Part shown: positions 7,134 through 37,031 of the stretch, piece by piece | Layout: each line of letters opens with the position of its first letter | How positions within the stretch are numbered: position 1 is the first letter of the stretch | Assembly (NCBI GenBank): GCA_965204115.1 | Contig: OZ241963.1 | Location: 532,622 to 596,621, forward strand | Reading direction: 5' to 3' | Length of the DNA: 64,000 nt | From: Minisyncoccota bacterium | GTDB taxonomy: Bacteria; Patescibacteriota; Minisyncoccia; Phycocordibacterales; JABAAK01 | The notes under the pieces: generated by a model | What the model was told of the DNA's origin: nothing | The model's input: only the letters and a program-made list of their open reading frames with translations | Databases searched by the model: none | Position numbers and translations under genes: made by a program

Positions 7134-7478
7134 ATGGCGAATACCAAAAAGCCCGCAAAAGGGTCGCATATTAACAAGTTACGCATTCGTGTACAGGCGT
7201 ACGAACCGAGGATATTGGATTCTTCTGTGAAGCAGATTATTGAGACGGCAACGCGGCTTGAGACAGAAATCGCCGGTCCCATTCCGCTTCCGACCAAGAT
7301 CAAGAAGCATTCGGTTAATCGGGCTTCATTCATCTACAAATCTTCTCAGGAACAATTTGAGATGCGTACACATACCCGTCTCATTGACATCAAGCACCCA
7401 TCACCACAGGTGATCGAGGCGCTCAGCAACCTTTCGTTGCCGGCCGGAGTGTCTATTGAGGCACAAATGCTTACCTAA
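7134..7478 (+). CDS. rpsJ: 30S ribosomal protein S10
   Basis: IRIRVQAYEP...ETATRLETEIAGPIPLPT is the S10 signature. Sits at the operon head after tuf. Confidence 0.95.
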   Translation: MANTKKPAKGSHINKLRIRVQAYEPRILDSSVKQIIETATRLETEIAGPIPLPTKIKKHSVNRASFIYKSSQEQFEMRTHTRLIDIKHPSPQVIEALSNLSLPAGVSIEAQMLT

Positions 7479-10915: not shown

Positions 10916-11587
10916 ATGACACACTCTTCACATCCTTATGGCTTTCGATTAGGTATTACCCGGGACTGGCGTACCCAGTGGTTTGCCGCTGATCGTAAAA
11001 AGTATCAGGCACTATTGCGGGAGGATTACTATATCCGCACTTTTCTTGAAAAGGAGCTGAGCAACAAGATGGTTAGTAGTATTTTGTTTGAGCGCGAGCG
11101 GGATACTCTGGTGATCACTATCAAGACCGCGCGGCCGGGGCTGATTATCGGGCGGGAAGGTGCCGGTATTGAGGAGCTGATACAGCGTGTGAAGCAGTTT
11201 GCCCGTAAACGAGGGTTGAACGATTTAATAAAAATACGGGTTGAGGAGGTGCGTTATGCCGAGCAGGATGCCACATTGGTTGCTGAATCAATTGTTGAGT
11301 CGTTGAAGCGGCACATGCACCCGAGACGGCTGATCAAGCATACCGTTGAGAAAGTGATGGCGAATCGAAATGTTCGCGGATGTCGGATTACCATAGCGGG
11401 TCGGCTTGGCGGTGCTGATATTGCCCGCAGTGAGGAGGTGAAGAAGGGTAACATACCGCTGCAGACCCTGCGCGCTGATATTGACTATGCGCAAAAAGAG
11501 GTTCCTCTTTCGTACGGCACGCTCGGTATTAAGGTTTGGATATATAAGGGAGATATTGAGCAGGATAATCAAGAAGAAAGAAAATAG
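10916..11587 (+). CDS. rpsC: 30S ribosomal protein S3
   Basis: KH domain plus S3 C-terminal domain (ARPGLIIGREGAGIE). Confidence 0.95.
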   Translation: MTHSSHPYGFRLGITRDWRTQWFAADRKKYQALLREDYYIRTFLEKELSNKMVSSILFERERDTLVITIKTARPGLIIGREGAGIEELIQRVKQFARKRGLNDLIKIRVEEVRYAEQDATLVAESIVESLKRHMHPRRLIKHTVEKVMANRNVRGCRITIAGRLGGADIARSEEVKKGNIPLQTLRADIDYAQKEVPLSYGTLGIKVWIYKGDIEQDNQEERK

Positions 11588-18714: not shown

Positions 18715-20865
18715 TTACTCCTGGTGAATTTTCTTATAGGTGAGGTACTGTTTGAGCGGGTGGTGGTGTTTTTTCTTGAGTGTCGGGTCTGCTCTGAGCG
18801 TTTCGGCGGCCTCTTGCCGTGCGAGGGCGGTGAGTTTCGGATTTTTGAGCGCTTCCATCACCAGGTCCGGGATGCCGGATTGGCGGATGCCGGCGAGTTC
18901 GCCGCTGCCGCGGGCGTCAAGGTCTTTCTGGGCGAGGGTGAAGCCGTTGTGGACGCTTGCGAAGGTTTTGAGACGGTGCAGCGTCTGTTCATTTTTACTG
19001 TCGGTGACGGCATAGCAGTAGGGCTGGTGCTCACTGCGTATGACCCTGCCGCGGATTTGGTGCAGCTGAGCAAGTCCGAAGCGTTCAGCGTGCAGGATGG
19101 TGATGATGGTGGCGTTGGGGACGTTCATCCCGACTTCCACGACCGTGGTGCAGACGAGGATGTTGATGTCGCCGCTGCTGAACCGTTCCATCACTTTCTG
19201 TTTTTCATTCGGTTTCATTCTGCCGTGAAGGATGCCGCTCTCAAGGTCGGGAAAGATGCTTTCTGTGAGGTGTTTGTATTCTTCTTCCACTGAGCGTAGG
19301 GGAGATTCTTCGTCCTCATGAACGCGAGGGCAGAGGACGTATGCCTGGTGTCCTTTATCAACCTCTTCCCGGATATGGTCGTATGCTTTTTGCATTTTTT
19401 TTGTGGTGATGAGCTCTGTTTTAACCGGCTTGCGTCCTTTCGGCATTTCTTCAATGATGCTGATGTCCAGGTCGCCGTAGATGGTGAGTGCGAGGGTGCG
19501 TGGTATGGGGGTGGCGGTCATGGAGAGGAGGTGGGGGGTGTGCGTGTCGGTTGCGTTGGTGAGTTTTTGGCGTTGGGCGATGCCGAAGCGATGCTGTTCG
19601 TCTATGATGACGAGGGCGAGGCGTTTGAATTGTATATCTTTCTGTATGATCGCATGGGTGCCGACGATGATGGCGATTTCGCCGGACGCGATCCATTTTT
19701 TAAGCTGTGTTTTTGATACCTTTGCCGGTTCGTTGGGGTTTACCTTTGACGGGTACCTCAGGCACTCTTTGCCGCTGATGAAGCCGATTTTTAGCGGAAG
19801 GTGGCTGAAGAGTTGTATGAGTGCTTCGAATTGCTGTTTGGCAAGGACTTCAGTGGGAGCAAGGTAGGCACACTGCGGCTTGCCGCTTGTTTTTTCTTCA
19901 GGGGTTGCTGCTACAACGCCGTGCATCACCGCTGCCGCGACCGCTGTTTTTCCGGAGCCGACATCGCCCTCCAATAGGCGGGACATCGGTTGGTTGCTGT
20001 GAATGTCTTTGAGGATTTCCGTGACCGCGCTCTTTTGGTCTTTGGTAGGTGTGAAGGCGAAGCGATTTTTCATAAAGTCATCGGTTTTTTGTGTGTCTAC
20101 GGAGAGGTTGTATGCCTGTGCCGTGAGGCGGGTGTTTTTTGCTGTCTGTTGCGTGATCTGCAGTGCGAAGGTTTGCTCAAATGAGAAGCGTTTTTTTGCG
20201 GCTTCGTACTCATTTTGTGTTGTTGGCTTGTGCATGTAGATGAGCGCATCGTAGCGGTTGGGGAGGTTGAGGCGGGTGCGGGTGTCTTTAGGTATCGGAT
20301 CGTCTATAGCTTTGATGTCGTCTTCTGCGAGGATTTTTTCTATTGTTGTGCGGAGCCAAAGGGAGGATATACCCTTTGTCTCAGGGTAGATGGCGATGAG
20401 CTCTTTGCGGATATCTGTGTCTGTGTCGCTGTTGTCGGTAAAAATATTTTCCGGCTGTTTTGAGGAGTGTTTGATGACTGGGTTGGTGAGATACGGTTTT
20501 TTCTCTCCGGATATTTTGCCGACCACTTCCACAATGTCCCCCTGGTGGTACTGTTTCGCGATGTAGGGCTGGTTAAACCACACGGCGCGAATTTTTTCAC
20601 CGTCGGCGTGGAGTGTCGCTTCAGCTATCATCACCCTTCTTTTGCCCCCGGTTCGACGCATACTGATTTTTTCTATAGTGCCGATAAGGGCCATTTTTTT
20701 TCCTTTTTCCAGGGTGCCGGTGAATTCTTGTGCCGCATCGGTATAGCGGTTGGGGAAGTGGTAGAGCAGATCGTGGACGGTCTCTATATTGAGTTTTTTG
20801 AGGGCGGTTTGGTGGGGTTTTTTGATGAATGGGAGGTGGTCAGTGAGCGGGTCTGTTGCTTGCAT
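18715..20865 (-). CDS. recG: ATP-dependent DNA helicase RecG
   Basis: N-terminal wedge/OB domain. SF2 helicase motifs EGDVGSGKTAVA, VIIDEQHRFG and SMTATPIPRT. Confidence 0.9.
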   Translation of the reverse strand: MQATDPLTDHLPFIKKPHQTALKKLNIETVHDLLYHFPNRYTDAAQEFTGTLEKGKKMALIGTIEKISMRRTGGKRRVMIAEATLHADGEKIRAVWFNQPYIAKQYHQGDIVEVVGKISGEKKPYLTNPVIKHSSKQPENIFTDNSDTDTDIRKELIAIYPETKGISSLWLRTTIEKILAEDDIKAIDDPIPKDTRTRLNLPNRYDALIYMHKPTTQNEYEAAKKRFSFEQTFALQITQQTAKNTRLTAQAYNLSVDTQKTDDFMKNRFAFTPTKDQKSAVTEILKDIHSNQPMSRLLEGDVGSGKTAVAAAVMHGVVAATPEEKTSGKPQCAYLAPTEVLAKQQFEALIQLFSHLPLKIGFISGKECLRYPSKVNPNEPAKVSKTQLKKWIASGEIAIIVGTHAIIQKDIQFKRLALVIIDEQHRFGIAQRQKLTNATDTHTPHLLSMTATPIPRTLALTIYGDLDISIIEEMPKGRKPVKTELITTKKMQKAYDHIREEVDKGHQAYVLCPRVHEDEESPLRSVEEEYKHLTESIFPDLESGILHGRMKPNEKQKVMERFSSGDINILVCTTVVEVGMNVPNATIITILHAERFGLAQLHQIRGRVIRSEHQPYCYAVTDSKNEQTLHRLKTFASVHNGFTLAQKDLDARGSGELAGIRQSGIPDLVMEALKNPKLTALARQEAAETLRADPTLKKKHHHPLKQYLTYKKIHQE

Positions 20866-21988: not shown

Positions 21989-23863
21989 ATGCTTAATACA
22001 GAACAAAAAGAAGCAGTGCAGAAAAATGACTGTTCACTCCTGATTGTCGCGGGTGCCGGGACAGGGAAGACGCGTGTGTTGGTTGAGAAGGTCGCGCACT
22101 TGCTGCAACAGGGTGCCGCAGGTCATCGCATCCTTGCGCTTACCTTCACGAACAAGGCGGCGGATGAGATGCTTTCCCGAGTGCGGGAACGGCAGCCGTC
22201 CGTGTCTTTGCCGTTTGTCGGCACCTTCCATTCGTTTTGTGTTTCGCTGCTGCGTGAGTTTTATGCGGAGGCCTCCGTTTCGGAACGGTTTGTTATTTTT
22301 GATCGTGATGCTTGCCGTCGGATTTTGAAGCGGTGCATGAAGCAGGAAGGGGTCACTGATATAACGCCGAGGGTTATGCAGCAGGCAATCGGTCAGCTGA
22401 AGACCGGGCTCGGCTCTTCTGTGCAGGATGTCTCTGCTGTTGCTGCTGAGCGGGTGCTGCCGCTCTATACTCTCGCTTTGGAGCGGGAGCGTGCGCTTGA
22501 TTTTGATGATTTACTGCTGCGGGCGATCACGCTGCTACAGAAACAGCATACTGTTCGAGAGCAGGTGCAATCCCGCTATGCGTATATTTTAATTGATGAG
22601 TTTCAGGATACTGATGGTATACAAAACAGTTTGGTTTCTCTGCTGAAAGGGCCGCAAACCCGTCTCGTTGCTGTGGGAGATACCGATCAGACGATTTATT
22701 CGTGGCGCGGTGCCAGTATTCACACCATGCTCTCTTTTGCCGAGCAGTATGATCCGGTCGCCACTATTTTTCTTACCCAGAATTACCGATCAAGCGGTAC
22801 TATTCTCGCCGCTGCGAATGCGGTTATTGCTGAGAATGTGTTTCGTCAGGAGAAGGATTTGGTTGCAACGCGGGGTGATGGTGAGCGGATTACTCTGCTT
22901 TCGTCCGGTGACGGGGAGGATGAGGCGCTGACTATTGCGCGGACGATCACTGATTTACATACGCGCGGTACTCCGTATCAAGATATTGCTATTTTGTTTC
23001 GCGCTAATTTTCAGGCGCGGGCGCTTGAGTCACAGATGCTTGCGCAGCGGATACCGTATATGGTGCTTGGCACCCGGTTTTTTGAGCGGTCTGAGGTGAA
23101 AGATTTACTCGCCTACCTTGAGCTGGTGCAGAATCCGAATTCGCAGGAGGCGTTTGCCCGCGCTGCCGGTGTGCCGCGCCGCGGTATCGGCGCGCGGACA
23201 CTTGAGCGGGTTTTTTCCGGTGAAGAGCACCTGCTTTCCGCCGCCACCGCCTCACGGGTGGCGAATTTGCGTTCCTGTGTCAGGCATATTGCCGCACTTG
23301 CGGAGACACAGTCCGTAACGACCGTGCTGCAGGAGTTGTTGGTGGCGTTAGAGTATCAAAAGTATCTTGCCGCGACTTATGACAACCCGGATGAGCGGAT
23401 GCGGGAAGTTGGGGAACTGGTTTCTTTTGCTGATCGTTTCTCCCATCTTTCCGGCGCTGACGGCATTGCGCAGATGCTTGCTGAGGTCGCGCTGAGCAGT
23501 GAGCAGGACTCTCTGCGCGCGAATACGCGGGACCGTGTTCGGCTTATGACGGTACACGCGGCAAAGGGTTTGGAGTTTCCGTGTGTGTTTATTGCCGGTA
23601 TGGAGGAAGGGCTGTTTCCGTTTTTTCATGATGAGGATGGTGTGCGTGATGGTGAGGAGGAGCGACGGTTGTGCTATGTCGCGATGACTCGGGCGAAAGA
23701 TCGGCTGTATTGCTCGTATGCGGAGCGGCGCAATATTTTCGGCTCCTGGCGCAGTATGCGTCCATCTTCGTTTTTATCCGCTATTCCGGAGCACCTTGTG
23801 ACGGCGGTTGGCAGAATGACTGCCGCAGATGATGAGGCATCGGAAGAATCCATTGCGTGGTAG
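21989..23863 (+). CDS. uvrD: UvrD/PcrA/Rep-family SF1 DNA helicase
   Basis: MLNTEQKEAVQ...AGAGTGKT Walker A. DEFQDT, QNYRS and VHAAKGLEF motifs. Confidence 0.9.
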   Translation: MLNTEQKEAVQKNDCSLLIVAGAGTGKTRVLVEKVAHLLQQGAAGHRILALTFTNKAADEMLSRVRERQPSVSLPFVGTFHSFCVSLLREFYAEASVSERFVIFDRDACRRILKRCMKQEGVTDITPRVMQQAIGQLKTGLGSSVQDVSAVAAERVLPLYTLALERERALDFDDLLLRAITLLQKQHTVREQVQSRYAYILIDEFQDTDGIQNSLVSLLKGPQTRLVAVGDTDQTIYSWRGASIHTMLSFAEQYDPVATIFLTQNYRSSGTILAAANAVIAENVFRQEKDLVATRGDGERITLLSSGDGEDEALTIARTITDLHTRGTPYQDIAILFRANFQARALESQMLAQRIPYMVLGTRFFERSEVKDLLAYLELVQNPNSQEAFARAAGVPRRGIGARTLERVFSGEEHLLSAATASRVANLRSCVRHIAALAETQSVTTVLQELLVALEYQKYLAATYDNPDERMREVGELVSFADRFSHLSGADGIAQMLAEVALSSEQDSLRANTRDRVRLMTVHAAKGLEFPCVFIAGMEEGLFPFFHDEDGVRDGEEERRLCYVAMTRAKDRLYCSYAERRNIFGSWRSMRPSSFLSAIPEHLVTAVGRMTAADDEASEESIAW

Positions 23864-23897
23864 TGAAACCCGGTGTCTGTGTTATAGTAAGTATGTT

Positions 23898-26800
23898 ATG
23901 TTGGTTTGTCGGCACTTTCTTTCTATCTCGCTGGTGTTTCTGTTAGGGGTGTTTATTTTTGGGTCGGTGGTGGCTCAGACACCGGAGCGACCCTCCTGGG
24001 ATTCATCTTACTCAGTGTATGCGGGTGTTGGCATCGGGTATCGGTCAGGCGTGCGATTTTTTCGGGATGTCTCTGCTGATTTGCGGAGTGGAGATCCTGC
24101 GCCGTCATTTTCTGTGAAAGCGGGAACCTTCCTCCCCGTGGGGCTGCAGCTCACCAGCGCCGGTCATCTTGTCGGTACTCCCACTGGCGTGGGGGAGTCA
24201 CGCTTCACCGTCGTGGCACAGAATACCGCCGGTGTCGCTGAGAAACAGATTATCCTCCGCCTCCGTGAGTCCTTCAGTGGTAGCTATGTTCAAGGAGGCG
24301 CCCATTCTGACATCCTTGATGTCCAGGTATTCCTCAATAGCACTGATTGTCCTGTTGCTGAGACCGGCCCCGGTTCCCCCGGACAGGAGACCTCCTACTT
24401 CGGCACTAAGACCCGACAGGCGCTTGCTTGCTACCAGCGACTCCATTCTCTTCCTGTCGTTAGCGTACTCACCCCGGCTTTGTTCCGACACTTCATCCAA
24501 ACCCACACCAATCGTCTCATTTCCGGAGTCCCCACCTTGTTGCCCGGTCTGGATGTGCAGGGGAGGGAGCACCCCTTTGGCTCCACCCACCCCGACATCC
24601 GTCAGGCGCAGGTATACCTCAACGGCACCCCGTGTCCTGTTGCTGAGACCGGCCCCGGTTCCCCCGGACAGGAGACCTCCTACTTCGGCACCAAGACCCA
24701 GCAGGCACTCAACTGCTACCAGCGGCTGCACAACCTTCCTGTTACGAACACTATCACCTCAGCACTTCTTGCCCGCCTTGCCGATATTTCACCATCGGGG
24801 GAGCGTGGTGTCTGCGACCTGACCATCTCACAAGGATGTGCGGTCGGCACCCCTGTTCAGCACGAGTCCTCCTACATCTCCCGAGGAGAACGCTGGCGCT
24901 GCCGCGGTGTCAACCAGGGATACAGCTCCGACTGGTGCGTTCGCTGTGACGATGGCTACTCCTTTGACGGAAGAAACTGCACCCGTAGCACCGTACAAGA
25001 GCCCTCTGCTCTCCGCTGCTCCGGCACCACCGTCTCCTTCTGTCGTCTCCCTCGATCCGCGCACGGCAACACCGTTACCGGCGCCTGCTCTGTCGGACGA
25101 ACCGGCGCCTGTCGATACACCTGCAGTAACGGCACTTGGCAGCTTGTTTCAAATACTTGTTCTCAGTTGAACATTCAAGGACACCTCCCCGGCTCCACCC
25201 ACCCCGACATCCGTCAGGCGCAGGTATACCTCAACGGCACCCCGTGTCCTGTTGCTGAGACCGGCCCCGGTTCCCCCGGACAGGAGACCTCCTACTTCGG
25301 CACCAAGACCCAGCAGGCACTCAACTGCTACCAGCGGCTGCACAACCTTCCTGTTACGAACACTATCACCTCAGCACTTCTTGCCCGCCTTTCAGAACAC
25401 TACACCCCTCCCGTCTGGAACACGCCGCAGGACATCCCTCCACCCCAACAGCAATCCGGTCCGCCTCCTGCCCCTCAGGTTGTTGTGCCCCAGAACGGTG
25501 TCTGTGACCTCACTGTTTCGCAGGGCTGCACCGTTGGCACTCCTATTTACCACGAACCCTCCTATCCCCGAGGAGAACGCTGGCGCTGCCGCGGTGTCAA
25601 CCAGGGATACAGCTCCGACTGGTGCGTTCGCTGTGACGATGGCTACTCCTTTGACGGAAGAAACTGCACCCGTAGCACCGTACAAGAGCCCTCTGCTCTC
25701 CGCTGCTCCGGCACCACCGTCTCCTTCTGTCGTCTCCCTCGATCCGCGCACGGCAACACCGTTACCGGCGCCTGCTCTGTCGGACGAACCGGCGCCTGTC
25801 GATACACCTGCAGTAACGGCACTTGGCAGCTTGTTTCAAATACTTGTTCTTTTGCACAGCCGGGTAATCCCGGTAATGCAGGTTTGCCCGATGGTGAATT
25901 GGCTCAACTGCGAGCGGAACAACCACAGCAGCAGGTTGGACAATCGTCGCAGTATGGTAATCACTTTGGGTATGCTGTAGATGTCGGTGGTAATGTGTCG
26001 CTGCGTCCGTGCAAGATGAAACGATGCTGTGATCCGTTCTGTGAAAGAGATTCCGGTTGCAAGGAGTGTGCTGTGTGTGAGCGGTCGTGGTGTCCTGCAG
26101 ATTCCGGTTGCAGCGGGACCTGTTCCGAAGGTTCCGGTTGTAGGTGGTGTGTTGAATGTGATGAATTGTGTACAGAGTGTGATTGGGTTAAATTGCGGTG
26201 TCGGAAGCGAGTTCAAACGGCGATGGTGGGGGCGCATAATGCGGGGGCCGGTTCGGTGTATTTTTATGTTCGGCATGAAGACCAATCGGGGCAGATACAG
26301 TGGCGGCTGCAGCAGAGAGTTGCTGCGAGTGACGGGCAGGCAGGTGATGCGTTCGGCTATTCTGTTGCCTTGGATGAAGATGTGGCGATTGTGGGGGCGC
26401 CGAGGGATGATACCAATACCGGTTCTGCCTATATCTTTATGCGGAGTGATGGTCCGCTGTGGGTTCAGAAGGCAAAGTTGACCGCGAGCGATCGTGAGAC
26501 ATCTGATTACTTTGGATCTTCTGTTGCGATAGATGGAGCGACTGCTGTTGTTGGTGCGTATGGCGAGGATCCCGGCGGTACTCAGAATGCCGGAGCGATA
26601 TATGTCTTTGTTCGATCCGGAGATAGGTGGAATTTTCAGGCAAAATTAATAGCGGAAGATGAGGGGTGGGCTGATAAGTTTGGCTATTCAGTTGCTGTTA
26701 CCGGTAATACCATTAGTGTTGGGGCATACCATGATGATCCCGGGTATAAGCCCCGCGCCGGTTCTATGTATACTTTTATTAGGTCCGGGGGTAGGTGGGT

Positions 26801-27773
26801 ACAGCAGCGGAAAGTGATTGCAGATGATCGTCAGCCGGATGATCAGTTTGGAAGTGCCGTTTCGATTATTGGGGAGAATTGTAGTGGTGGGAAGTGTTGC
26901 ATTCCGGTTGACGGTCGGTGGAGTACCGTGCCGATGCCGGATGAATTGCCGTGTGGCAAGATAGTGAAGGCGACCTGCACTAACCCCGCGCCTTCCTGCG
27001 GAGGCAGTCCATGTGTTGGTCCGCCGCCTAAGTCGTATGGGACGAAGTGTGATAGCGGGAGAGAGTGTGATATTGTTACCAATCAATGTAAGCAAGATGT
27101 GTGTTGTGGTCCTAATTGCATACTCGGTATTACTCACTGCGTTGTCATTCGTGGGGTGCGTTACTGTCCGCGATGCGTCTTCCGACCGGAGGAGTGGATA
27201 TCGCCGCAGTGTCAAGGTGCCTCTGAAATCCGCTGTGGCGCGAAGATACCGAATACTGACGGTATTTGTGTTATGGGTCAGACATGCGACTGCAAAGGTA
27301 TTTATTGCCGCTCTGAACGACCGGTTCGCAAATGTTCCGGTGTCGGCACCAACTGTCCGAGTGGCAGCAGGACAGTTGTCAGCGGGGTGCGTAATGATGG
27401 GTTTACCGGATCGGTATATATTGTGAGCAATGGCAAACAAAAGAGAGTTGTCGTGGGTGATGGAGGTCCTCAGGATCGTTTCGGTTCCGCTGTTGCTATC
27501 AGTGAATACGACTTGGTTGTCGGTGCGCGTGATGAGGATGTTGGTGGTATCGTCGATGCTGGTGCTGTATATGTGTTCGGCACGAGCGGAGGGCAGCGCC
27601 TTAAACTGAGTGCTCAGGATAAGCAGCAATATGATTACCTTGGTCAAGCTGCCTCAGTATATGACACTTTGATGATTGTTGGTGCGTATGGTAGGGATTC
27701 CTATGGAGGGGCGGCTTATATATTCACCTATCTTGATGGTTTGTGGGAGCAGGAGGTTCAGCTAAAAGAGTGA
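23898..27773 (+). CDS. Giant secreted cell-wall-binding/adhesin-like protein (about 1292 aa). Signal peptide, putative Ig domain, three peptidoglycan-binding-like modules, Cys-rich modules and FG-GAP-like beta-propeller repeats
   Basis: Start moved to the internal ATG (MLVCRHFLSISLVFLLGVFIFGSVVAQTP) to avoid a 35-nt overlap with uvrD. PG-binding-like module YLNGTPCPVAETGPGSPGQETSYFGTKTQQALNCYQRLHNLPV occurs three times. FG-GAP-like repeats DxFGxSVAxxGxxxxVGAxxDD...GAxYVF occur about six times. Confidence 0.8.
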   Translation: MLVCRHFLSISLVFLLGVFIFGSVVAQTPERPSWDSSYSVYAGVGIGYRSGVRFFRDVSADLRSGDPAPSFSVKAGTFLPVGLQLTSAGHLVGTPTGVGESRFTVVAQNTAGVAEKQIILRLRESFSGSYVQGGAHSDILDVQVFLNSTDCPVAETGPGSPGQETSYFGTKTRQALACYQRLHSLPVVSVLTPALFRHFIQTHTNRLISGVPTLLPGLDVQGREHPFGSTHPDIRQAQVYLNGTPCPVAETGPGSPGQETSYFGTKTQQALNCYQRLHNLPVTNTITSALLARLADISPSGERGVCDLTISQGCAVGTPVQHESSYISRGERWRCRGVNQGYSSDWCVRCDDGYSFDGRNCTRSTVQEPSALRCSGTTVSFCRLPRSAHGNTVTGACSVGRTGACRYTCSNGTWQLVSNTCSQLNIQGHLPGSTHPDIRQAQVYLNGTPCPVAETGPGSPGQETSYFGTKTQQALNCYQRLHNLPVTNTITSALLARLSEHYTPPVWNTPQDIPPPQQQSGPPPAPQVVVPQNGVCDLTVSQGCTVGTPIYHEPSYPRGERWRCRGVNQGYSSDWCVRCDDGYSFDGRNCTRSTVQEPSALRCSGTTVSFCRLPRSAHGNTVTGACSVGRTGACRYTCSNGTWQLVSNTCSFAQPGNPGNAGLPDGELAQLRAEQPQQQVGQSSQYGNHFGYAVDVGGNVSLRPCKMKRCCDPFCERDSGCKECAVCERSWCPADSGCSGTCSEGSGCRWCVECDELCTECDWVKLRCRKRVQTAMVGAHNAGAGSVYFYVRHEDQSGQIQWRLQQRVAASDGQAGDAFGYSVALDEDVAIVGAPRDDTNTGSAYIFMRSDGPLWVQKAKLTASDRETSDYFGSSVAIDGATAVVGAYGEDPGGTQNAGAIYVFVRSGDRWNFQAKLIAEDEGWADKFGYSVAVTGNTISVGAYHDDPGYKPRAGSMYTFIRSGGRWVQQRKVIADDRQPDDQFGSAVSIIGENCSGGKCCIPVDGRWSTVPMPDELPCGKIVKATCTNPAPSCGGSPCVGPPPKSYGTKCDSGRECDIVTNQCKQDVCCGPNCILGITHCVVIRGVRYCPRCVFRPEEWISPQCQGASEIRCGAKIPNTDGICVMGQTCDCKGIYCRSERPVRKCSGVGTNCPSGSRTVVSGVRNDGFTGSVYIVSNGKQKRVVVGDGGPQDRFGSAVAISEYDLVVGARDEDVGGIVDAGAVYVFGTSGGQRLKLSAQDKQQYDYLGQAASVYDTLMIVGAYGRDSYGGAAYIFTYLDGLWEQEVQLKE
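24579..24779 (+). repeat. Intragenic direct repeat B1, copy 1 (201 bp, 100% identical to 25191..25391)
   Basis: Exact match read directly from the sequence; encodes the PG-binding-like module. Confidence 0.85.
24880..25163 (+). repeat. Intragenic direct repeat B2, copy 1 (284 bp, 100% identical to 25567..25850)
   Basis: Exact match; encodes the Cys-rich module (CRGVNQGYSSDWCVRCDDGYSFDGRNCT...). Confidence 0.85.
25191..25391 (+). repeat. Intragenic direct repeat B1, copy 2
   Basis: Identical to 24579..24779 at an offset of 612 bp. Confidence 0.85.
25567..25850 (+). repeat. Intragenic direct repeat B2, copy 2
   Basis: Identical to 24880..25163 at an offset of 687 bp; the linkers between B1 and B2 differ (100 nt versus 175 nt). 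Confidence 0.85.
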
Positions 27774-28155: not shown

Positions 28156-28920
28156 ATGAGAAGGAAGCTCGGGCAGTATTTTTTGCGGTCGCGGAGGGTG
28201 TTGGATGCGGTTGTTGGTGCGATTGCTATTCCGTCGGAGACGGTTGTGGTTGAGGTCGGTCCGGGGAAGGGGGCGTTGACGGAACGGATTCTCACGCGGC
28301 ATACCGCTGTAGTTGCGGTTGAAAAGGACTCTGATCTTGTGATGGTGTTGCAGGAGCGATTTGCCGGGGCTGTCGCCGCAGGTCGGCTGATGCTTGTGGA
28401 AGGTGATGTGCGGGATGGTGCGTGGTCGGGTGCAGTGGCAGGTCAGTCGTATGCGGTTATCGCGAATATCCCGTATTATCTTACCGGGTCGCTTATTCGG
28501 GAGATGTTGACCAGAAGTCACCCGCCGGTTGCGATGTCTCTGGTGGTGCAGAAAGAGGTCGCGGAACGGATAGTGAGGCGAGGCAGTGTGAAAGAATCCT
28601 TGTTGTCGCTTTCGGTTCAGTTGTTTGGCACTGCGCGCTATGTGCAAACAGTACCACAGAGGGCATTTTCTCCGCAGCCGCGGGTTGATTCGGCGATTAT
28701 TGCTATTACCGACATACAAAAGCCGTCGTGGCAGGTGCAGGATGTTTTTTTTCGAGTATTGAAAACTGCTTTTCACGGGAAACGGAAGACCGTTTTGAAA
28801 AAATTTGCCGATATGCCGAATGTGCAGACCATCCTGGTCCAAAATAAGGTTTCCCCAACTGCTCGGGCGGAGGATGTGCCATTTACTGTTTGGCTTGCGG
28901 TGGCGCGGTCGCTTTCTTGA
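28156..28920 (+). CDS. rsmA: 16S rRNA (adenine1518/1519-N6) dimethyltransferase
   Basis: LGQYFL N-terminus and VEVGPGKGALTE SAM-binding motif. SD GGAGGT upstream. Confidence 0.92.
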   Translation: MRRKLGQYFLRSRRVLDAVVGAIAIPSETVVVEVGPGKGALTERILTRHTAVVAVEKDSDLVMVLQERFAGAVAAGRLMLVEGDVRDGAWSGAVAGQSYAVIANIPYYLTGSLIREMLTRSHPPVAMSLVVQKEVAERIVRRGSVKESLLSLSVQLFGTARYVQTVPQRAFSPQPRVDSAIIAITDIQKPSWQVQDVFFRVLKTAFHGKRKTVLKKFADMPNVQTILVQNKVSPTARAEDVPFTVWLAVARSLS

Positions 28921-30209: not shown

Positions 30210-33200
30210 ATGTTTTCTTTTAATGACCAGCGTGGCGGTTTTGCCACCATCGCCATTGTCGGGGGTGTTGCTGTTGCGGTTGTTGCCGGGGGTGTGTTTT
30301 ACTTTTTGCGCAGTAGCCCGCCTGAAGTTGATACTGTTTTGAAGGATGATTCGGCTACTGTTTTCGGTGAGGAGACCGTTTTGTCTGTTGATGCGGAGGA
30401 TGCGCTGCTTCGGAGTTTGCCTCGCGGGCGTACCAATGACTATTGCTCGTTACTCGGATTGGAGCGGGAGGCCTGTGCGGGTGGTGCCGAGGGTGTGTGC
30501 CGGGACTTGTTTGGCAGCTGTAGTATTGACGTCTCCCGTGACTCCTCTGACACTATTCGGCAGTTTGCCGAGGCCTGCTTGGTTTTGCGAACTGCGGAAG
30601 GGCGGTCGCAGTATTTTGCATGGCTTGATAGCGGTGATCCGAAGCCGTTTCCGCTTTATTACGCCATATTCGGACTGGAGGAAGGTGCGTTTAACCAGAA
30701 ACAACTCACTGATGCGTACCAGGTACTATTGGATTCATACTTTTCCACTGCTTCCTGCGACAATCGTGAGGCACTTCGTCTTTTGTCTGAGGGGTATCTT
30801 TTGCTGAGCGATGCTGCCGGTCGGTCTGAATACGATGTGTGGCTGAATGGCACCGGCAGTGATCCGTTTCCCTTATACTACGCGCTTCTTGGGCTGCGTA
30901 GAGACACTTTTACGCAACAAGATTCTGCTGATGCATACAAGAAAACCTTGGATCAATATCTTTCCGGATACTACGGCAACAATACTGAGGTCTTGCGCCT
31001 CTTGACCGAAGCGCATATGATATTGTACGATCCGTCATCGCAGTCCGCCTACAGCACACTTCTTGATGGCGGTCTGTCATCTTCTTTTTCCGATATTTCT
31101 CTTGATTTGGGTGGGGACAATCTGTTTTCTGCCCTCAGTGATCTTAACCTTTCACCCACTCATCTCGGTACTGTTTTCGGCTCCTTAGACCTGTCTTCTG
31201 CTGAGCTTGTAAGTGCTGCTGCCACGCTTGATTTCTCCTCCACTGATTTAGGCGGCTTTGTTGGCGGACTCAATCTTTCTCCGGGCAATCTCAGTGCCGT
31301 TCTGAGCGATTTTAGTATCTCTCCGGATAATCTTGGCGCTGCTCTTAACGGTCTTAATCCTTCCACTGATGACCTGAGTAACATTCTGAGTGACCTTGAT
31401 CTTTCTGCCGCTGAGCTGAGTATTGTTTTGAGTGACCTTGCTCTCCCCGCCGATGAGCTGAGTACCGTTCTGGGGGATCTTACTATACCTCCAACTGACC
31501 TGCAGACCTTATTTACCAATTTCGATATCCCTTTTCTTGGTGAGGGTACTCCGTTTCCCGGTGTTGCCGTGCCGCCCGATGATTTGCCGGATGATGCTGA
31601 TGATTTACCGGCGGTTGCTATTTCTCCGAAGCTTGTTCAGATTGGTGTTAAGAATGACGGTGTTCAGCCATCATTTCTCGTGGAGGTTACGAAAGGTGGT
31701 TCTCCGTACGCCCCTGATACGCCGATTACAGTTGCTCTGGAGTGTGAGGATGCCGTTCGTCCGGCTAGTCAGCCGACCACTTCTTTGATTTTAAGCGATT
31801 TGCCGGAATCTGTCCTGCTCTCTGCCAGCAAAGGTACGACCGGGGATTTAGTTCGAGCCCCTGGTGTTACCGGGTATGTTGTATGTGCTGTTGTTGCTGA
31901 CACTAATACAGATCCGACTTACATACTTGGCTCACCCTCCTCTGCAAGAGTTACTATTGTTGGAGGTTCGTCCGGTCCGCCTTGTGATAGGCCGTCGTGC
32001 CCCGGTGATCCGACCAGCGGTCCGTTGCCTACTGTTTCCATTGCCGCTGTTGAGCCGCGTGTTGCCAGCGGTGATGATGCGGTGTTTCGTGTTTCTTCCA
32101 GTTCCGATATTGTCGGGTCGTTGCATGTGCAGTATTCATGCAGTGCCAATACCAGTGTCGATAACACTTATCTCGGCGAGAATGATGTTACGATTCAGGG
32201 TGGTTCCGGGCAGTTTGCTACTACCATCACCCTGCCGACGAATGAGGATGTTTCTGATACCGTTACATGTGAACTACTTGATAGTGTAAAAAATGCGTAT
32301 AGGATTTTAGGTCGTGATGCTTCTGTCGGAGTCGGGTTGTTGGGATCAGGGGACATTGAAGGGTATGATCCTGCATTGCCGACCGTCTCCCTGATAGCGT
32401 ATCGCACGACACCGGGCAATTCTGGTAAGTTTTCAGAGAAGGTTAGCAGTACCGTTGTTGGTGATACGGACACTTATATTGGACTGGTGATTGATGACCC
32501 TGAATCAGATTCTTTTGGTGATGAGGATCCGGACTCCCGGAAGGAGGTTTCTGACGGTGAGTTGTATGTGCTGTATGTGACAGATTTTGGTAATACCATT
32601 TCTGTGCTGCCGGGCGATGGAGGGACTGTCACTGTTGGCATTAGTAAGGATAGGGAGGTTCCGGACTCGGAGCCGCTGTTTAATGCTGTCGCCGATACCG
32701 TTGTTGCCAAGCATTCAGGGTATGGGAGTCCTCCCACCGCTCTGCATCACAGTGCTGGGGGTGGTAGTCGTTGGAGAGGTAATTTTGCCGAGGGCAGTAT
32801 CTTTATTGAAATAACCGCAGATCATCGCGTTATTATGCGGAATGATGTCGAGGGAAATGTGATTGTTTGTGGCTATGATCGCGGTGTTCTGTATTGTGCG
32901 ACTTATGAGGATGCAGATAGATTTGCCCCGAGAAATATCTTTGTTACCGCGGAGTGTCGTAAAGAATTTTCGGATCGTGAGAGAAGTCGGGAGGACTCCG
33001 GTCTTATCACAGGCGGTCGGCGCGTGGTTGATCGCGGTAGTGAGCCGTCGTATGCGTTGCCGGTGTTCGGGTATGCTCCTGTTCGTCGCGGTGATCCCGA
33101 GGGTGACTTATACACCTTTATTCGTTCTGACGGGACTTACGATGCCCTTGATGAAGATGCAGGTCCTGATTCGGTGTTTAGTTCGATCCGTATCGATCCT

Positions 33201-36200
33201 TTTCTTGAGCCGGATACGACTTTTTCCTGTAGGATTTCCGGTGGCGGGGCAGAGGATGGGTATAATGTCGGCACTCCTTATGCGGAAGTGCAGGTGCGAC
33301 CGCGTGCGACGATATCTCTCGGTGTGCATGGTGCGCAGCGTGTTGCTGATGAGTCAGGGCTTCTCGGTGAGCCGGTTGCGCATCTTGATCGTCGTCAAGC
33401 GGAGTATAATTTTGATTCTGACAACTCTGACTTTTCTGATTTTCCCACCGGCCCAACCGGAGGTAGAGAGATTCCTGGTGTTGATGCATCGTTTCGTGAT
33501 GTGTCCGCCAGTTTAGGGGCGTCTCTTAGTGTTGGGTTTCTCACTTCTTTTGGTGCGTGTGCCGGTTCCTCTCTCTTGAATCGAGGAATCAGTGAGCTTG
33601 CTAATAGAATTGGTCTTGGCGGTTTTGGTGCTGTTCCGGTTAGATCTGCAAAACTTGAACTCAAGGAGTGTGTTTTGGATTCCGCTGTTTCCGGCGCTGT
33701 TTTGGAGGTGCTTACTGCTGTTGCGAGAGATTATATCACCTGGGCATCTGAGGGATTTGAGGACAAGCCGCTGTTTGTGAAGAATCCGACCACTTTTTAT
33801 AAGAACCTGCGCGATGATGCAATCGGTCGTGTTATTGATCGGAGTGGTCTTGGGTTTCTCTGCGATATCGGCGTTCCTAATTTTGAAGCGTACGAGGCAA
33901 CGCTTAAGATTAATTTGCAGCAGCAATATCTCGGCATCGCTACTGATCGACCGAGGTGTACCTATAGTGATTTGGCAAATAACCTTGAGGATTTTTATGA
34001 TGATGCTTCAGATGTTTTGCGTGATCTTGATCCGGAGTATTTGAGAAGCTTTGGTTTTACTATTGACGGCTCTGTCAGAACGCAGAACGCAGGCACTTTT
34101 CAGTTTCCGCCGTCTGATGGATTTACCGGCAATCAGCTTGATGCGTTCTCGGCGAACCTTGATCGCGCTATGAAGAAGACGGAGAATAGTAGTAATTTTC
34201 TCCTGGCTGTTTCCCAGGTGGATAGTGATATTCGCGAGGCGCGGCAGGAGTTTGATGCCGCTGTGAAGCCGGTTTCTCAGATTTTTAATCCGAATGACCC
34301 GACATCAATTGGTGCGTTTCGGGAGTGTAATGAGACAGAGAATCCGGAAGGTGATGTTGACTGTTTTTCATTGAATGTATCCGGTTCTAAGATTACTGAA
34401 ATGACCGGTAAGGGGATTAGCTCGCTTTCCGACCGATTGTTGCAGGTTGATGAGTTTGGGGAGTTTGGTCAGTTGGTTGGTCTGGCGGTGAACGCGACTT
34501 CTGCCGGCTTGATGAAGAAGTATTTAAGCAGGGGCTTTGGGCATTCAGTAGACAGAGAGACCGCGGATCTGTTGAGTAATATTGAAAAAGATATTGATGC
34601 CTCTCTCAGGCCGTCAAGTGCTCGTAAAGTTAGTTTGAGTGAGAACTGGTGGTCGGTGTTTTTTGAAAGAAACGCGTTTTATAATGACTTGCTGAATGCT
34701 GAGATGTATGCGAATGATGTCTTTACCTTATTGCAGTATATTGGGTCCGGTTTGTACCGGGATCCGAAGCGAATTGGTGATAAGGCATATATCCCTCCTG
34801 TCCGTCCTTATACCGCCTTTGATACTTTGCGCCATGCGAGTACGAGTGGTACACCAGGGCAATTTCCCATATTTTCGTATGGCAATTTGATTGGTTTTTC
34901 TTCCGCACAACTTACGAGGAATTATGCTAATTTTTATCACGCTCCAGATATTAAGAGTGCTGTTGAGGAGCGTGCTTTTGAGCAGCTTAATGGTAATAAT
35001 GGATGGGCGAAGGAGCGACTCCAGCATATTTTTAACGGCTGGGTCAGTGATGAATCCGGAGAGGAGCAAGGGTATCGAAAGATGGTGGCGATTGAGCGGT
35101 TTGATGATGCGCATCGTTTTTTGTCTAATGGTGAGGCGCGTTCAGCGTACAATGCTTTTCTCGGCAAGATGGGGGACTTTATTGAGAATACGCCGTATGA
35201 TCGGCAAGGCACGAGTAATTGGTGGAAGAAGAGTATGAAGAATATGCCAGACGATGTGAGAGAAGATATAGCCGGCCCTGGTCCTTCTTTGCCGGGACAT
35301 TTAGCAGGACTTAAGGATACAGATTCGCTCACCGACGATCAGAGTGTTCACTATCCCGAGGACCACACCGATTTTTCAAAACGTGTTTTCGGCGTCGGCT
35401 CTTCGGAGGAAAGGACTTGTGGTAATACACCCTGTGCTGATTGCCTGTTTCGTCGTTCAAGAGCGGCGTCAGGGAGTGCCGCGACGTGTACAACGGAAGG
35501 AGGAACAACATACCCTTGCATCAATGATATTGCGGGAAATATAGGACAGTGTATATATTTTAAGGGCGGTACTTCTGATCTTAGTGCTGGTGTTTGTGGT
35601 CTTTCGCTTACGGATCCGAGGTTTGAAACCCATTGCGGGGTCTGCTGGCCTCACAATCTCAATGGCAATACCGATCAAAATAAGTTTACTGCGTTTACGG
35701 GTGAGGTTGAGTACTATTGTCCTGCGGGAGGGACTTCCGAAAAGTTGCTGGATGCTCAGGGGGACCTTGTTACCATCAAACAATTGCGTAAGATTTACGA
35801 AGCAACATTGGCGGTGCATATTCGTTTAGTTGGAACGCTTGATGAGTATCGAGGCGCTCCACTGCTCAGCTCGCCTATTCATACTTACCGCAGAGAGATT
35901 TTGGATGCTTATCGGGCAGATCCTGATTCTGATGATCTTGATAGTGGCGGCGGGTGGGCAGTTGTGCAGCAGGAAACTTTAAAAAAGTTTCGTGACGGCA
36001 CAATGCAGGTGTATATTCCTCTTGACGATGACGAGTTTGGTGAGCAGGAGTATTTGACTCTTTTGAGTAGTGTTGGGTGTGTGAAAGCGGATGCGATTAC
36101 TTTTCAGGACGGTGCTTTTATCAGAAGTTATCAGGAGATGAGTTGTGTTTTAGGAACAGTTTTTCAGGATCAGGCGTACTTTGTACTTCGTCGAGAGAAT

Positions 36201-37031
36201 GATGATCTCAATAAGCGGCGTGTTGTGTATCTTGCTTGCGGGTATGATGATGATTCTGATGATGATTCTGTCGCTCCCGGCCAGCAGTCAGATGCAGACA
36301 AGCGTTTCCGGTTCAAGAAGGGCGTGGAAGGAAACCCAAGACCACTTCCGCCGGTGACCCTGGAGAAGGGGGAGGATTCGGTTATCTTTCCGGTGCCGAA
36401 ACCGATTTGGTCGCCGTTTGATCTTGGTGACCGCACTCCTTATAATAAGGATGACACTCCTCCTAACTACACTCCATTAACCGGTCAACGGATTCGTTGC
36501 TCTATAGATTTGAAGAGGACTCAGGTGAGTGCTGATGTTGCTGTGGATACGCTTACCCAAGTTGTCACTGTCTCGGAGCATCTGTCAAATGATGGTTCTC
36601 CCGTCACTTTTCACTCTCTGGTTCGGAATACTTTGGGGGGTATTGTTACCTCTCGTCTTGAGGATCGAAAGGATATGGTTGCTGAAGCACTGTTTTATAC
36701 CTATGTTTGGGGGTGGTATACCGGATTTATAGAGATGCCGTATTACTCTATTCAAGGACTGTTATCTAACCCGCCGGTAATTTTGACGGATAGCAAGGTG
36801 GCGGTGACGGCGAATATTCAGGGTAATCAGGAGGCGTTGCGACGGTATCGTTTTTTGAGTTCGCTGTTTGCCAATGAGAGTGATTCGCGGTTTTCGTCAA
36901 AAAACTTTGGTTTTCTTACTCCTGCTGAGGCGCGTGCTGAGTACGAGCATTCTTTTGACGATCGGTTTAATGGATATTTTGGACGCGCGCTCGGAGAATT
37001 TTTTGAGCTGCTCCCCAATATGCATCAGTAA
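30210..37031 (+). CDS. Giant (2273 aa) membrane-anchored surface protein. One N-terminal TM, three degenerate J-domain-like repeats lacking HPD, about nine 14-aa tandem repeats, then a large Cys-containing domain of unknown function
   Basis: Single uninterrupted 6.8-kb ORF. TM GFATIAIVGGVAVAVVAGGVFYF. J-like repeats PLYYALLGL...DAYKKTLDQY...LRLLTEAHMILYD span nt ~30432-31065. 14-aa period xxVLSDLxLSxxEL spans nt ~31092-31530. Confidence 0.75.
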   Translation: MFSFNDQRGGFATIAIVGGVAVAVVAGGVFYFLRSSPPEVDTVLKDDSATVFGEETVLSVDAEDALLRSLPRGRTNDYCSLLGLEREACAGGAEGVCRDLFGSCSIDVSRDSSDTIRQFAEACLVLRTAEGRSQYFAWLDSGDPKPFPLYYAIFGLEEGAFNQKQLTDAYQVLLDSYFSTASCDNREALRLLSEGYLLLSDAAGRSEYDVWLNGTGSDPFPLYYALLGLRRDTFTQQDSADAYKKTLDQYLSGYYGNNTEVLRLLTEAHMILYDPSSQSAYSTLLDGGLSSSFSDISLDLGGDNLFSALSDLNLSPTHLGTVFGSLDLSSAELVSAAATLDFSSTDLGGFVGGLNLSPGNLSAVLSDFSISPDNLGAALNGLNPSTDDLSNILSDLDLSAAELSIVLSDLALPADELSTVLGDLTIPPTDLQTLFTNFDIPFLGEGTPFPGVAVPPDDLPDDADDLPAVAISPKLVQIGVKNDGVQPSFLVEVTKGGSPYAPDTPITVALECEDAVRPASQPTTSLILSDLPESVLLSASKGTTGDLVRAPGVTGYVVCAVVADTNTDPTYILGSPSSARVTIVGGSSGPPCDRPSCPGDPTSGPLPTVSIAAVEPRVASGDDAVFRVSSSSDIVGSLHVQYSCSANTSVDNTYLGENDVTIQGGSGQFATTITLPTNEDVSDTVTCELLDSVKNAYRILGRDASVGVGLLGSGDIEGYDPALPTVSLIAYRTTPGNSGKFSEKVSSTVVGDTDTYIGLVIDDPESDSFGDEDPDSRKEVSDGELYVLYVTDFGNTISVLPGDGGTVTVGISKDREVPDSEPLFNAVADTVVAKHSGYGSPPTALHHSAGGGSRWRGNFAEGSIFIEITADHRVIMRNDVEGNVIVCGYDRGVLYCATYEDADRFAPRNIFVTAECRKEFSDRERSREDSGLITGGRRVVDRGSEPSYALPVFGYAPVRRGDPEGDLYTFIRSDGTYDALDEDAGPDSVFSSIRIDPFLEPDTTFSCRISGGGAEDGYNVGTPYAEVQVRPRATISLGVHGAQRVADESGLLGEPVAHLDRRQAEYNFDSDNSDFSDFPTGPTGGREIPGVDASFRDVSASLGASLSVGFLTSFGACAGSSLLNRGISELANRIGLGGFGAVPVRSAKLELKECVLDSAVSGAVLEVLTAVARDYITWASEGFEDKPLFVKNPTTFYKNLRDDAIGRVIDRSGLGFLCDIGVPNFEAYEATLKINLQQQYLGIATDRPRCTYSDLANNLEDFYDDASDVLRDLDPEYLRSFGFTIDGSVRTQNAGTFQFPPSDGFTGNQLDAFSANLDRAMKKTENSSNFLLAVSQVDSDIREARQEFDAAVKPVSQIFNPNDPTSIGAFRECNETENPEGDVDCFSLNVSGSKITEMTGKGISSLSDRLLQVDEFGEFGQLVGLAVNATSAGLMKKYLSRGFGHSVDRETADLLSNIEKDIDASLRPSSARKVSLSENWWSVFFERNAFYNDLLNAEMYANDVFTLLQYIGSGLYRDPKRIGDKAYIPPVRPYTAFDTLRHASTSGTPGQFPIFSYGNLIGFSSAQLTRNYANFYHAPDIKSAVEERAFEQLNGNNGWAKERLQHIFNGWVSDESGEEQGYRKMVAIERFDDAHRFLSNGEARSAYNAFLGKMGDFIENTPYDRQGTSNWWKKSMKNMPDDVREDIAGPGPSLPGHLAGLKDTDSLTDDQSVHYPEDHTDFSKRVFGVGSSEERTCGNTPCADCLFRRSRAASGSAATCTTEGGTTYPCINDIAGNIGQCIYFKGGTSDLSAGVCGLSLTDPRFETHCGVCWPHNLNGNTDQNKFTAFTGEVEYYCPAGGTSEKLLDAQGDLVTIKQLRKIYEATLAVHIRLVGTLDEYRGAPLLSSPIHTYRREILDAYRADPDSDDLDSGGGWAVVQQETLKKFRDGTMQVYIPLDDDEFGEQEYLTLLSSVGCVKADAITFQDGAFIRSYQEMSCVLGTVFQDQAYFVLRRENDDLNKRRVVYLACGYDDDSDDDSVAPGQQSDADKRFRFKKGVEGNPRPLPPVTLEKGEDSVIFPVPKPIWSPFDLGDRTPYNKDDTPPNYTPLTGQRIRCSIDLKRTQVSADVAVDTLTQVVTVSEHLSNDGSPVTFHSLVRNTLGGIVTSRLEDRKDMVAEALFYTYVWGWYTGFIEMPYYSIQGLLSNPPVILTDSKVAVTANIQGNQEALRRYRFLSSLFANESDSRFSSKNFGFLTPAEARAEYEHSFDDRFNGYFGRALGEFFELLPNMHQ

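Follow-up and report, generated by a model that had tools for sequence, protein, structure and literature searches.

Two exactly repeated tracts within a tandem module duplication of a Patescibacteria gene, probably homogenised by recent gene conversion

We analysed a stretch of 64,000 nucleotides (nt), here called the window, from contig OZ241963.1 of a Minisyncoccota bacterium of the Patescibacteria or Candidate Phyla Radiation (CPR), and in it a gene for a multidomain protein in which two tandem units share two tracts of perfectly identical DNA. Unit 1 consists of a peptidoglycan (PG)-binding module, a short linker and a Cys-rich module; unit 2 consists of a PG module, a Pro-rich linker and a Cys-rich module. 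The domains of the protein follow in the order signal peptide, He_PIG, PG module 1, unit 1, junction, unit 2, Cys-rich spacer and FG-GAP repeats. The two identical tracts, which we call the PG block and the Cys block, were probably homogenised recently, in the lineage of the window, by gene conversion between the tandem units.

The host gene and its repeated units

The longest open reading frame (ORF) of the host gene starts at 23829, and because the upstream UvrD-like gene has its stop at 23863 and the orthologues begin at an equivalent Met (MLVCRHF/MLTYRCF), the true start is probably the ATG at 23898; read from 23829, the ORF overlaps the end of the UvrD-like gene by 35 nt. The features of the gene are as follows, with positions counted in the window.

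23829-27773, + strand: host gene in its longest ORF, 1314 amino acids (aa)
23898-23978, + strand: probable hydrophobic N-terminal signal peptide or anchor (MLVCRHFLSISLVFLLGVFIFGSVVAQ), predicted from the sequence and conserved in the orthologues
24105-24248, + strand: He_PIG (putative Ig) domain (Pfam, E=6.6e-05 and E=5.2e-06)
24285-24499, + strand: PG_binding_1-like module 1, an old diverged copy with 69% nt identity to module 2
24579-24779, + strand: PG block copy 1 (PG_binding_1 module 2), unit-1 type, putative donor, 100% identical to 25191-25391
24780-24879, + strand: linker A, made up of the short linker ADISPSGER and the start of Cys module 1 (24 codons, 24807-24879), unconverted
24880-25163, + strand: Cys block copy 1 (the rest of Cys-rich module 1), putative recipient, 100% identical to 25567-25850
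25164-25190, + strand: inter-unit junction QLNIQGHLP, 27 nt, with no paralogous counterpart
25191-25391, + strand: PG block copy 2 (PG_binding_1 module 3), putative recipient
25392-25566, + strand: linker B, the Pro-rich linker (25392-25496) with the first 23 codons of Cys module 2 (25497-25566), unconverted
25567-25850, + strand: Cys block copy 2, unit-2 type, putative donor
25851-27770, + strand: C-terminal part with a Cys-rich spacer and with FG-GAP_2 repeats of beta-propeller type that a further Cys-rich insert splits

An earlier note on this DNA, made from its letters, had described the two blocks, and its description stands: both are maximal exact matches, one of 201 nt at an offset of 612 nt and one of 284 nt at an offset of 687 nt, separated in each unit by the diverged segments of 100 and 175 nt listed above as linkers A and B. 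The third, diverged PG-binding copy that the note placed upstream is also there, and its 69% identity holds over 215 nt, rising to 81.5% over 157 nt by blastn, with 72% identity in aa. Across 570 alignable sites the two units show 27 differences, every one of them outside the blocks and confined to 85 sites. Not one of 20,000 permutation trials gave an identity run of at least 284 nt (the largest was 250), and an analytic calculation puts the probability of finding no difference in either stretch at about 1e-24; chance is therefore excluded as the source of the blocks. The identical share of each unit comes to 485 of about 600-690 nt, and the linkers differ. The right border of each block is the end of inter-unit homology, and the left border falls within sequence that is homologous but diverged. 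No further copy of either module was found in the 64-kb window.

Pfam agrees with the earlier description of a PG-binding-like module in the blocks. PG_binding_1 (PF01471) matches the whole protein at E=1.8e-17 and 63.7 bits against a gathering cut-off of 23, and the isolated module 2 at E=5.4e-07 and 30.2 bits, again above the cut-off; the diverged module 1 falls slightly under it (E=2e-4, 21.9 bits). FG-GAP_2 (PF14312) matches in six stretches, above its gathering score, at E=1.9e-70, and no C-terminal wall-anchor motif is visible in the sequence of the host protein. With three PG-binding modules and a beta-propeller, the product is plausibly a secreted, wall-associated binding protein. The earlier note's term for the gene, a giant adhesin gene, goes too far on both counts: the adhesin function of the 1314-aa protein was read from its domains alone and is overstated, and the giant ORF of the window is a separate one of 2273 aa (30210-37031).

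Age of the duplication and divergence of its parts

We compared the gene with four orthologues of 63-71% protein identity (L001, L002, L003 and L004), whose DNA comes from independently assembled metagenome scaffolds of the European Nucleotide Archive (ENA). All four show the same synteny, with ribonucleotide reductase (RNR), UvrD, the module gene and an ORF of ~2270 aa, and in all four the modules follow the layout of the window, in which PG, short linker and Cys (unit 1) precede PG, Pro-rich linker and Cys (unit 2). Because four independent assemblies agree on these two units, the duplication is not an assembly expansion. Within the orthologues the paralogous modules are 81-86% (PG) and 79-87% (Cys) identical in nt. 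The segments that separate the blocks are orthologous by position, linker A matching unit 1 of L002 at 22/24 aa and linker B (23 codons) matching unit 2 of L003 at 23/23 aa. A more distant orthologue of 50% protein identity, L006, has one unit only, of the unit-2 type. Because L006 has a single unit whereas the window and L001-L004 share the two-unit layout, we date the duplication to after the split from L006 and before the divergence of the five close genomes; it is old.

L005, L006, L007 and L008 belong to one species, L005 coming from a Candidatus Kaiserbacteria metagenome-assembled genome (MAG) that is the nearest genome-resolved relative; remoter proteins with PG modules come from Ryanbacteria and Paceibacterota. 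By these relatives the window bacterium is Kaiserbacteria-like and belongs to the Patescibacteria/CPR. Three independent assemblies of the single-unit species break at three different points within the PG/Cys cassette (L005 ends at 11083, L008 ends at 7437 and L007 starts at 3), which suggests either a near-identical second cassette copy elsewhere in that genome or strain heterogeneity. Module content differs at longer range, with an extra He_PIG domain and an extra half-module in L004 and several extra half-modules in P0005-P0007.

Synonymous divergence, which the earlier note had suggested comparing between blocks and linkers, separates the two sharply. Synonymous divergence (dS) is 0 over the 161 codons of the blocks versus ~3.5 in the 23 alignable codons between them, where 19/69 nt differ and nonsynonymous divergence (dN) is 0.13. 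In the same block columns, the paralogue pairs of the orthologues have dS values of 0.26-0.89.

Neighbour-joining (NJ) trees, in which W denotes the window sequence and percentages are bootstrap values, grouped the paralogues of the Cys block by genome in W (100%), L001 (100%), the L002+L003 clade (95%) and L004 (65%). In the PG block, W (100%) and L004 (73%) were paired, L001 was unpaired, and L002+L003 were unpaired as well (clade 49%). The tree of the 24 unconverted codons placed W unit 1 with unit 1 of L002/L003 (35%) and W unit 2 with their unit 2 (67%), and the L004 units paired together (100%), that is, were homogenised in that segment instead. Identity runs beyond chance occur in 4/4 orthologues (56-115 nt, P <= 0.00075), at positions that differ between genomes. 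Paralogues paired by genome, together with above-chance identity runs in every lineage, point to recurrent, mosaic concerted evolution, of which the window appears to hold the most recent and most extensive episode. A comparable pair is found in a related protein from another assembly, P0008. Its five arrayed PG modules include two tandem PG_binding_1 modules (L010 6392-6629 and 6701-6938) that encode identical protein over 75 codons, with 8 synonymous differences, and that are flanked by unrelated linkers; the pair seems to record an earlier case of such conversion.

Gene conversion, its rivals and known systems

The old duplication, the position-specific linkers and the grouping of paralogues by genome within the blocks make recent gene conversion or concerted evolution, as the earlier note had suspected, the best explanation of the exact repeats. 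In the course of events that we propose, an old tandem duplication of a unit composed of PG_binding_1, a linker and the Cys-rich module would have been followed, recently and in the window lineage, by two non-reciprocal homologous recombination events. One would have overwritten the PG module of unit 2 with unit-1 sequence and the other most of the Cys module of unit 1 with unit-2 sequence; neither the linkers nor the ~24 codons at the start of each Cys module would have been converted. The machinery responsible may have been of RecA type or a template switch. As to direction, the PG block carries the unit-1 state at 5/6 diagnostic sites, and 64/67 of its residues agree with unit 1 of L002 versus 57/67 with unit 2, and the Cys block carries the unit-2 state at 6/9 diagnostic sites, has a one-codon indel in common with L004 unit 2 and matches that unit at 79/95 aa versus 70/95 for L004 unit 1. 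Because the PG block is of unit-1 type but the Cys block of unit-2 type, we infer two tracts of opposite direction, or else one complex event around the junction; the two putative recipients, Cys module 1 and the PG module of unit 2, adjoin across the 27-nt junction (24880-25391).

Several points weigh against this reading. The direction calls depend on few diagnostic sites (6 and 9). The identity is known from the assembly alone and may be ~98-99% instead of 100%; a de Bruijn assembler can fuse slightly different repeat copies into one consensus. No second assembly or population sample of the same strain stands behind the comparison, and the analysis covers 64 kb of the genome, with a third donor copy that may lie elsewhere.

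The alternative that the earlier note itself had named, an assembly in which the second unit is not real (expansion) or the true copy number is different (collapse), draws on the fact that exact repeats of 201 and 284 nt exceed typical assembly k-mers and create an ambiguous path in a short-read graph, and on the three assemblies of a related species that break inside the cassette. We consider it largely refuted and very improbable, since in all four orthologues, which come from independent assemblies, the two units stand in one and the same order and carry linkers specific to their positions, and the linkers of the window are positionally orthologous to theirs. An unlikely artefact of a second kind would leave both copies real and near-identical and smooth a few true differences into one consensus, as happens when assemblers merge bubbles in repeats, a known behaviour. 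The orthologue assemblies, however, kept paralogue differences of 13-21%, and such smoothing would still need a recent conversion, since the flanking homologous codons are synonymously saturated; the age estimate alone would shift and not the mechanism. We give next to no credence to the idea that the whole unit was duplicated recently and its linkers then diverged fast, or to purifying selection alone as the keeper of identical modules. Nothing speaks for either except the identity itself; the linkers and the N-terminal Cys codons are positionally orthologous across genomes with dS ~3.5, and protein-level selection cannot keep 161 codons synonymously identical when the paralogues of the orthologues diverge in the same columns.

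It is also improbable, in our judgement, that both units were overwritten by ectopic conversion from a third, unseen paralogous cassette elsewhere in the genome. Such a donor would fit the existence of cassette-only relatives with other C-termini (P0005-P0007), the assembly breaks in the single-unit species, which agree with a second near-identical copy in that genome, and a cassette codon usage that is foreign to its surroundings. Yet no other copy lies within the 64 kb, and the sequences closest to the PG and Cys blocks are, respectively, unit 1 and unit 2 of the orthologues themselves, the Cys block matching P0005 at only 72/95 aa against the 79/95 for L004 unit 2. A P0005-like paralogue was rejected as the donor, being no closer than the orthologues' own units.

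Recombination is predicted to shorten or lengthen the gene by 612 nt if it takes place between the PG blocks and by 687 nt if it takes place between the Cys blocks, in both cases in frame; a possible outcome is thus length variation and not on/off phase variation. The earlier note had raised both. Phase variation is not supported, as the offsets are multiples of 3 and there is no simple-sequence tract; Tandem Repeats Finder likewise reported no tandem or simple-sequence array in the host gene. Length variation is mechanically possible, though none was observed, two units being present in 5/5 close genomes. No unit-number variant occurs among the window and L001-L004, which include no same-species sample; the distant L006 alone has one unit.

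DNA-identical tandem domain repeats are known from Periscope Proteins and from other surface proteins (SasG/Aap G5-E, Rib/alpha C, Sgo_0707 SHIRT, Esp and CdrA; PMC8201768), and the host protein resembles them in part, as a putative extracellular multidomain protein with tandem modules of very high DNA identity, an identity attributed to intragenic recombination and permitting it. In contrast to these proteins, the host protein has only two units, both composed of two domains and differing in their linkers; its identity is patchy, in two tracts, and does not span whole repeats; no change in its repeat number was seen over five related genomes; no C-terminal wall-anchor motif is visible in it; and it belongs to a Patescibacteria/CPR host, not a pathogen. 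In Periscope Proteins a rod-like stalk, anchored in the wall at the C-terminus, carries a ligand-binding domain at its N-terminal end; the AlphaFold2 (AF2) model of the unit has a predicted local distance difference test score (pLDDT) of 60, which is low confidence. We see a small chance that the identity is kept up within a programmed length-variation system of Periscope type, in which unit number would often change between strains. RecA could mediate gain and loss of units between perfect in-frame direct repeats spaced 612 and 687 nt apart, and distant relatives do vary in unit content (L006 has one unit, and L004 and P0005-P0007 have extra half-modules). Set against this are the exactly two units in 5/5 close genomes, the presence of two units and no array, and linkers held distinct under purifying selection (dN 0.13 vs dS 3.5). 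Because the linkers stay distinct in this way, the two units are suggested not to be interchangeable.

In prokaryotes the tuf genes and the rRNA operons are examples of concerted evolution. The window gene shows the marks of concerted evolution of prokaryotic paralogues by gene conversion, a subject surveyed in PMC6053082, with paralogues closer within a genome than orthologues between genomes, recurrence over lineages and mosaic tracts, but the known cases are separate, mostly housekeeping genes, whereas here the partners are modules in one ORF, 612-687 nt apart. Two further systems of surface-protein conversion differ in another respect. Neisseria pilE/pilS achieves antigenic variation by conversion from silent donors. 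In Mycoplasma genitalium, antigenic variation of MgPa proceeds by gene conversion from silent donor cassettes (PMC2169797), and the non-reciprocal transfer of a segment into a surface-protein gene is common to MgPa and the window gene; yet in the MgPa and pilE systems many silent donors diversify an expressed copy, whereas here two expressed modules are homogenised and the window holds no donor archive.

The phenomenon is of an already known kind, combining DNA-identical tandem modules of a surface protein with prokaryotic concerted evolution, and involves no new mechanism. What the gene offers is a clean, comparatively dated case of recurrent intragenic conversion, from an uncultured lineage of the Patescibacteria/CPR whose recombination dynamics have seldom been documented. 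It also counsels caution to annotators and assemblers, as a gene family with exact repeats that exceed common k-mers.

Composition, the Cys-rich module and the neighbourhood

The module cassette coincides with a sharply bounded compositional island:

24101-25900: compositional island with GC 0.58-0.62, negative GC skew and dominant C-ending codons

In the window (1-64000), a very strong GC skew (mean +0.185, taken every 400 nt) goes with the + strand in whichever direction the genes run; the codon bias of minus-strand genes, RecG (18715-20865) among them, is a mirror image, and the contig of P0006 (L009) has the same + strand skew (+0.28). The cassette is the longest and deepest exception to this skew, reaching -0.32. 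At four-fold sites the GC skew is -0.72 in the modules versus +0.12 and +0.23 in the N-terminal and C-terminal parts of the host gene, and in the Cys blocks G falls to 3% and C rises to 55-66% of these sites. The two-fold ratio C/(C+T) is 0.59-0.92 in the island versus 0.12-0.43 in + strand ORFs, bar one small ORF (0.56). The island is kept in L001-L004 and L006; the homologous cassette of P0006 lacks it and follows the skew of its own genome.

The pyrimidine-rich signature is plausibly a mosaic-gene relic, inherited from an ancestor whose cassette was recruited from elsewhere, because at four-fold sites the transversion differences between the window and L006 reach only 18-23%. Ancestral recruitment would fit the cassette-only relatives with other C-termini. 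It is unlikely, if still worth naming, that the island is actively maintained, by repeated ectopic conversion from an unseen, compositionally different donor or by cassette-specific selection on codons or nucleic-acid composition; were it so, a dedicated process would be homogenising a CPR surface-protein cassette, with the perfect blocks as its most recent outcome. Polarised substitution spectra, applied as a test of amelioration, gave an excess of common-to-rare changes that parsimony bias predicts equally.

Three other accounts connected with the island were tried and rejected. A simple strand flip does not explain its origin, as NNR codons stay G-rich and T exceeds A, unlike in minus-strand genes. 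The long ORFs in alternative frames (24169-24822, 24838-25170 and 25252-25980 on the + strand and several on the - strand) are explained by composition and not by an overlapping gene; in all five genomes the +1 frame has 2-5 stops where synonymous shuffles predict 4-6, and no antisense frame is open. The idea of a G-quadruplex or R-loop that initiates recombination from the G-rich minus strand was dropped, as the window gene lacks such a motif and the orthologues share no conserved one.

The Cys-rich module, with 12 Cys in 118 aa, belongs to no Pfam family and has no significant match to a solved structure. A homologue search with the module alone gave no match, and in an exhaustive profile search of 1.84 billion representatives, used instead, the full module was found only in the clusters of P0004-P0007. 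Its C-terminal ~50 aa (25014-25163 and 25701-25850) form a separate Cys-rich repeat that is found in 154 clusters, with as many as 15 copies in one protein and next to N-termini of Flg_new_2, fn3 or pilin-like type, and that has no Pfam family either. The AF2 model of the unit (predicted template modelling score, pTM, 0.31) is confident only at residues 150-198, the C-terminal subdomain. With this low-confidence model, Foldseek against the PDB returned matches all at E>0.1, consistently to Sushi/CCP or HormR domains (e.g. 4dlq_A, 46 columns, root-mean-square deviation 1.8), and the PDB sequence match of the module, to the GLP-2 receptor ectodomain, was weak (E=0.063). The analysis thus defines a two-part Cys-rich module, of which the ~50-aa repeat could be described as a new domain family.

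The proteins of L002 and L003 have an additional Cys-rich C-terminal extension of ~200 aa. Relative to the module gene, a KsgA-like (RrnaAD) gene is downstream in the window (28156-28920), L001 and L004 but upstream in L002 (9244-10014) and L003 (9283-10053), a shift of position that is a local rearrangement between close relatives. The 2273-aa ORF further downstream is syntenic in L002 (2276 aa) and L003 (2268 aa) and has no Pfam domain bar a sub-threshold DnaJ match; within it lie a 21-nt tandem repeat at 31578-31619 and a weak patch of negative skew at 30701-31600.

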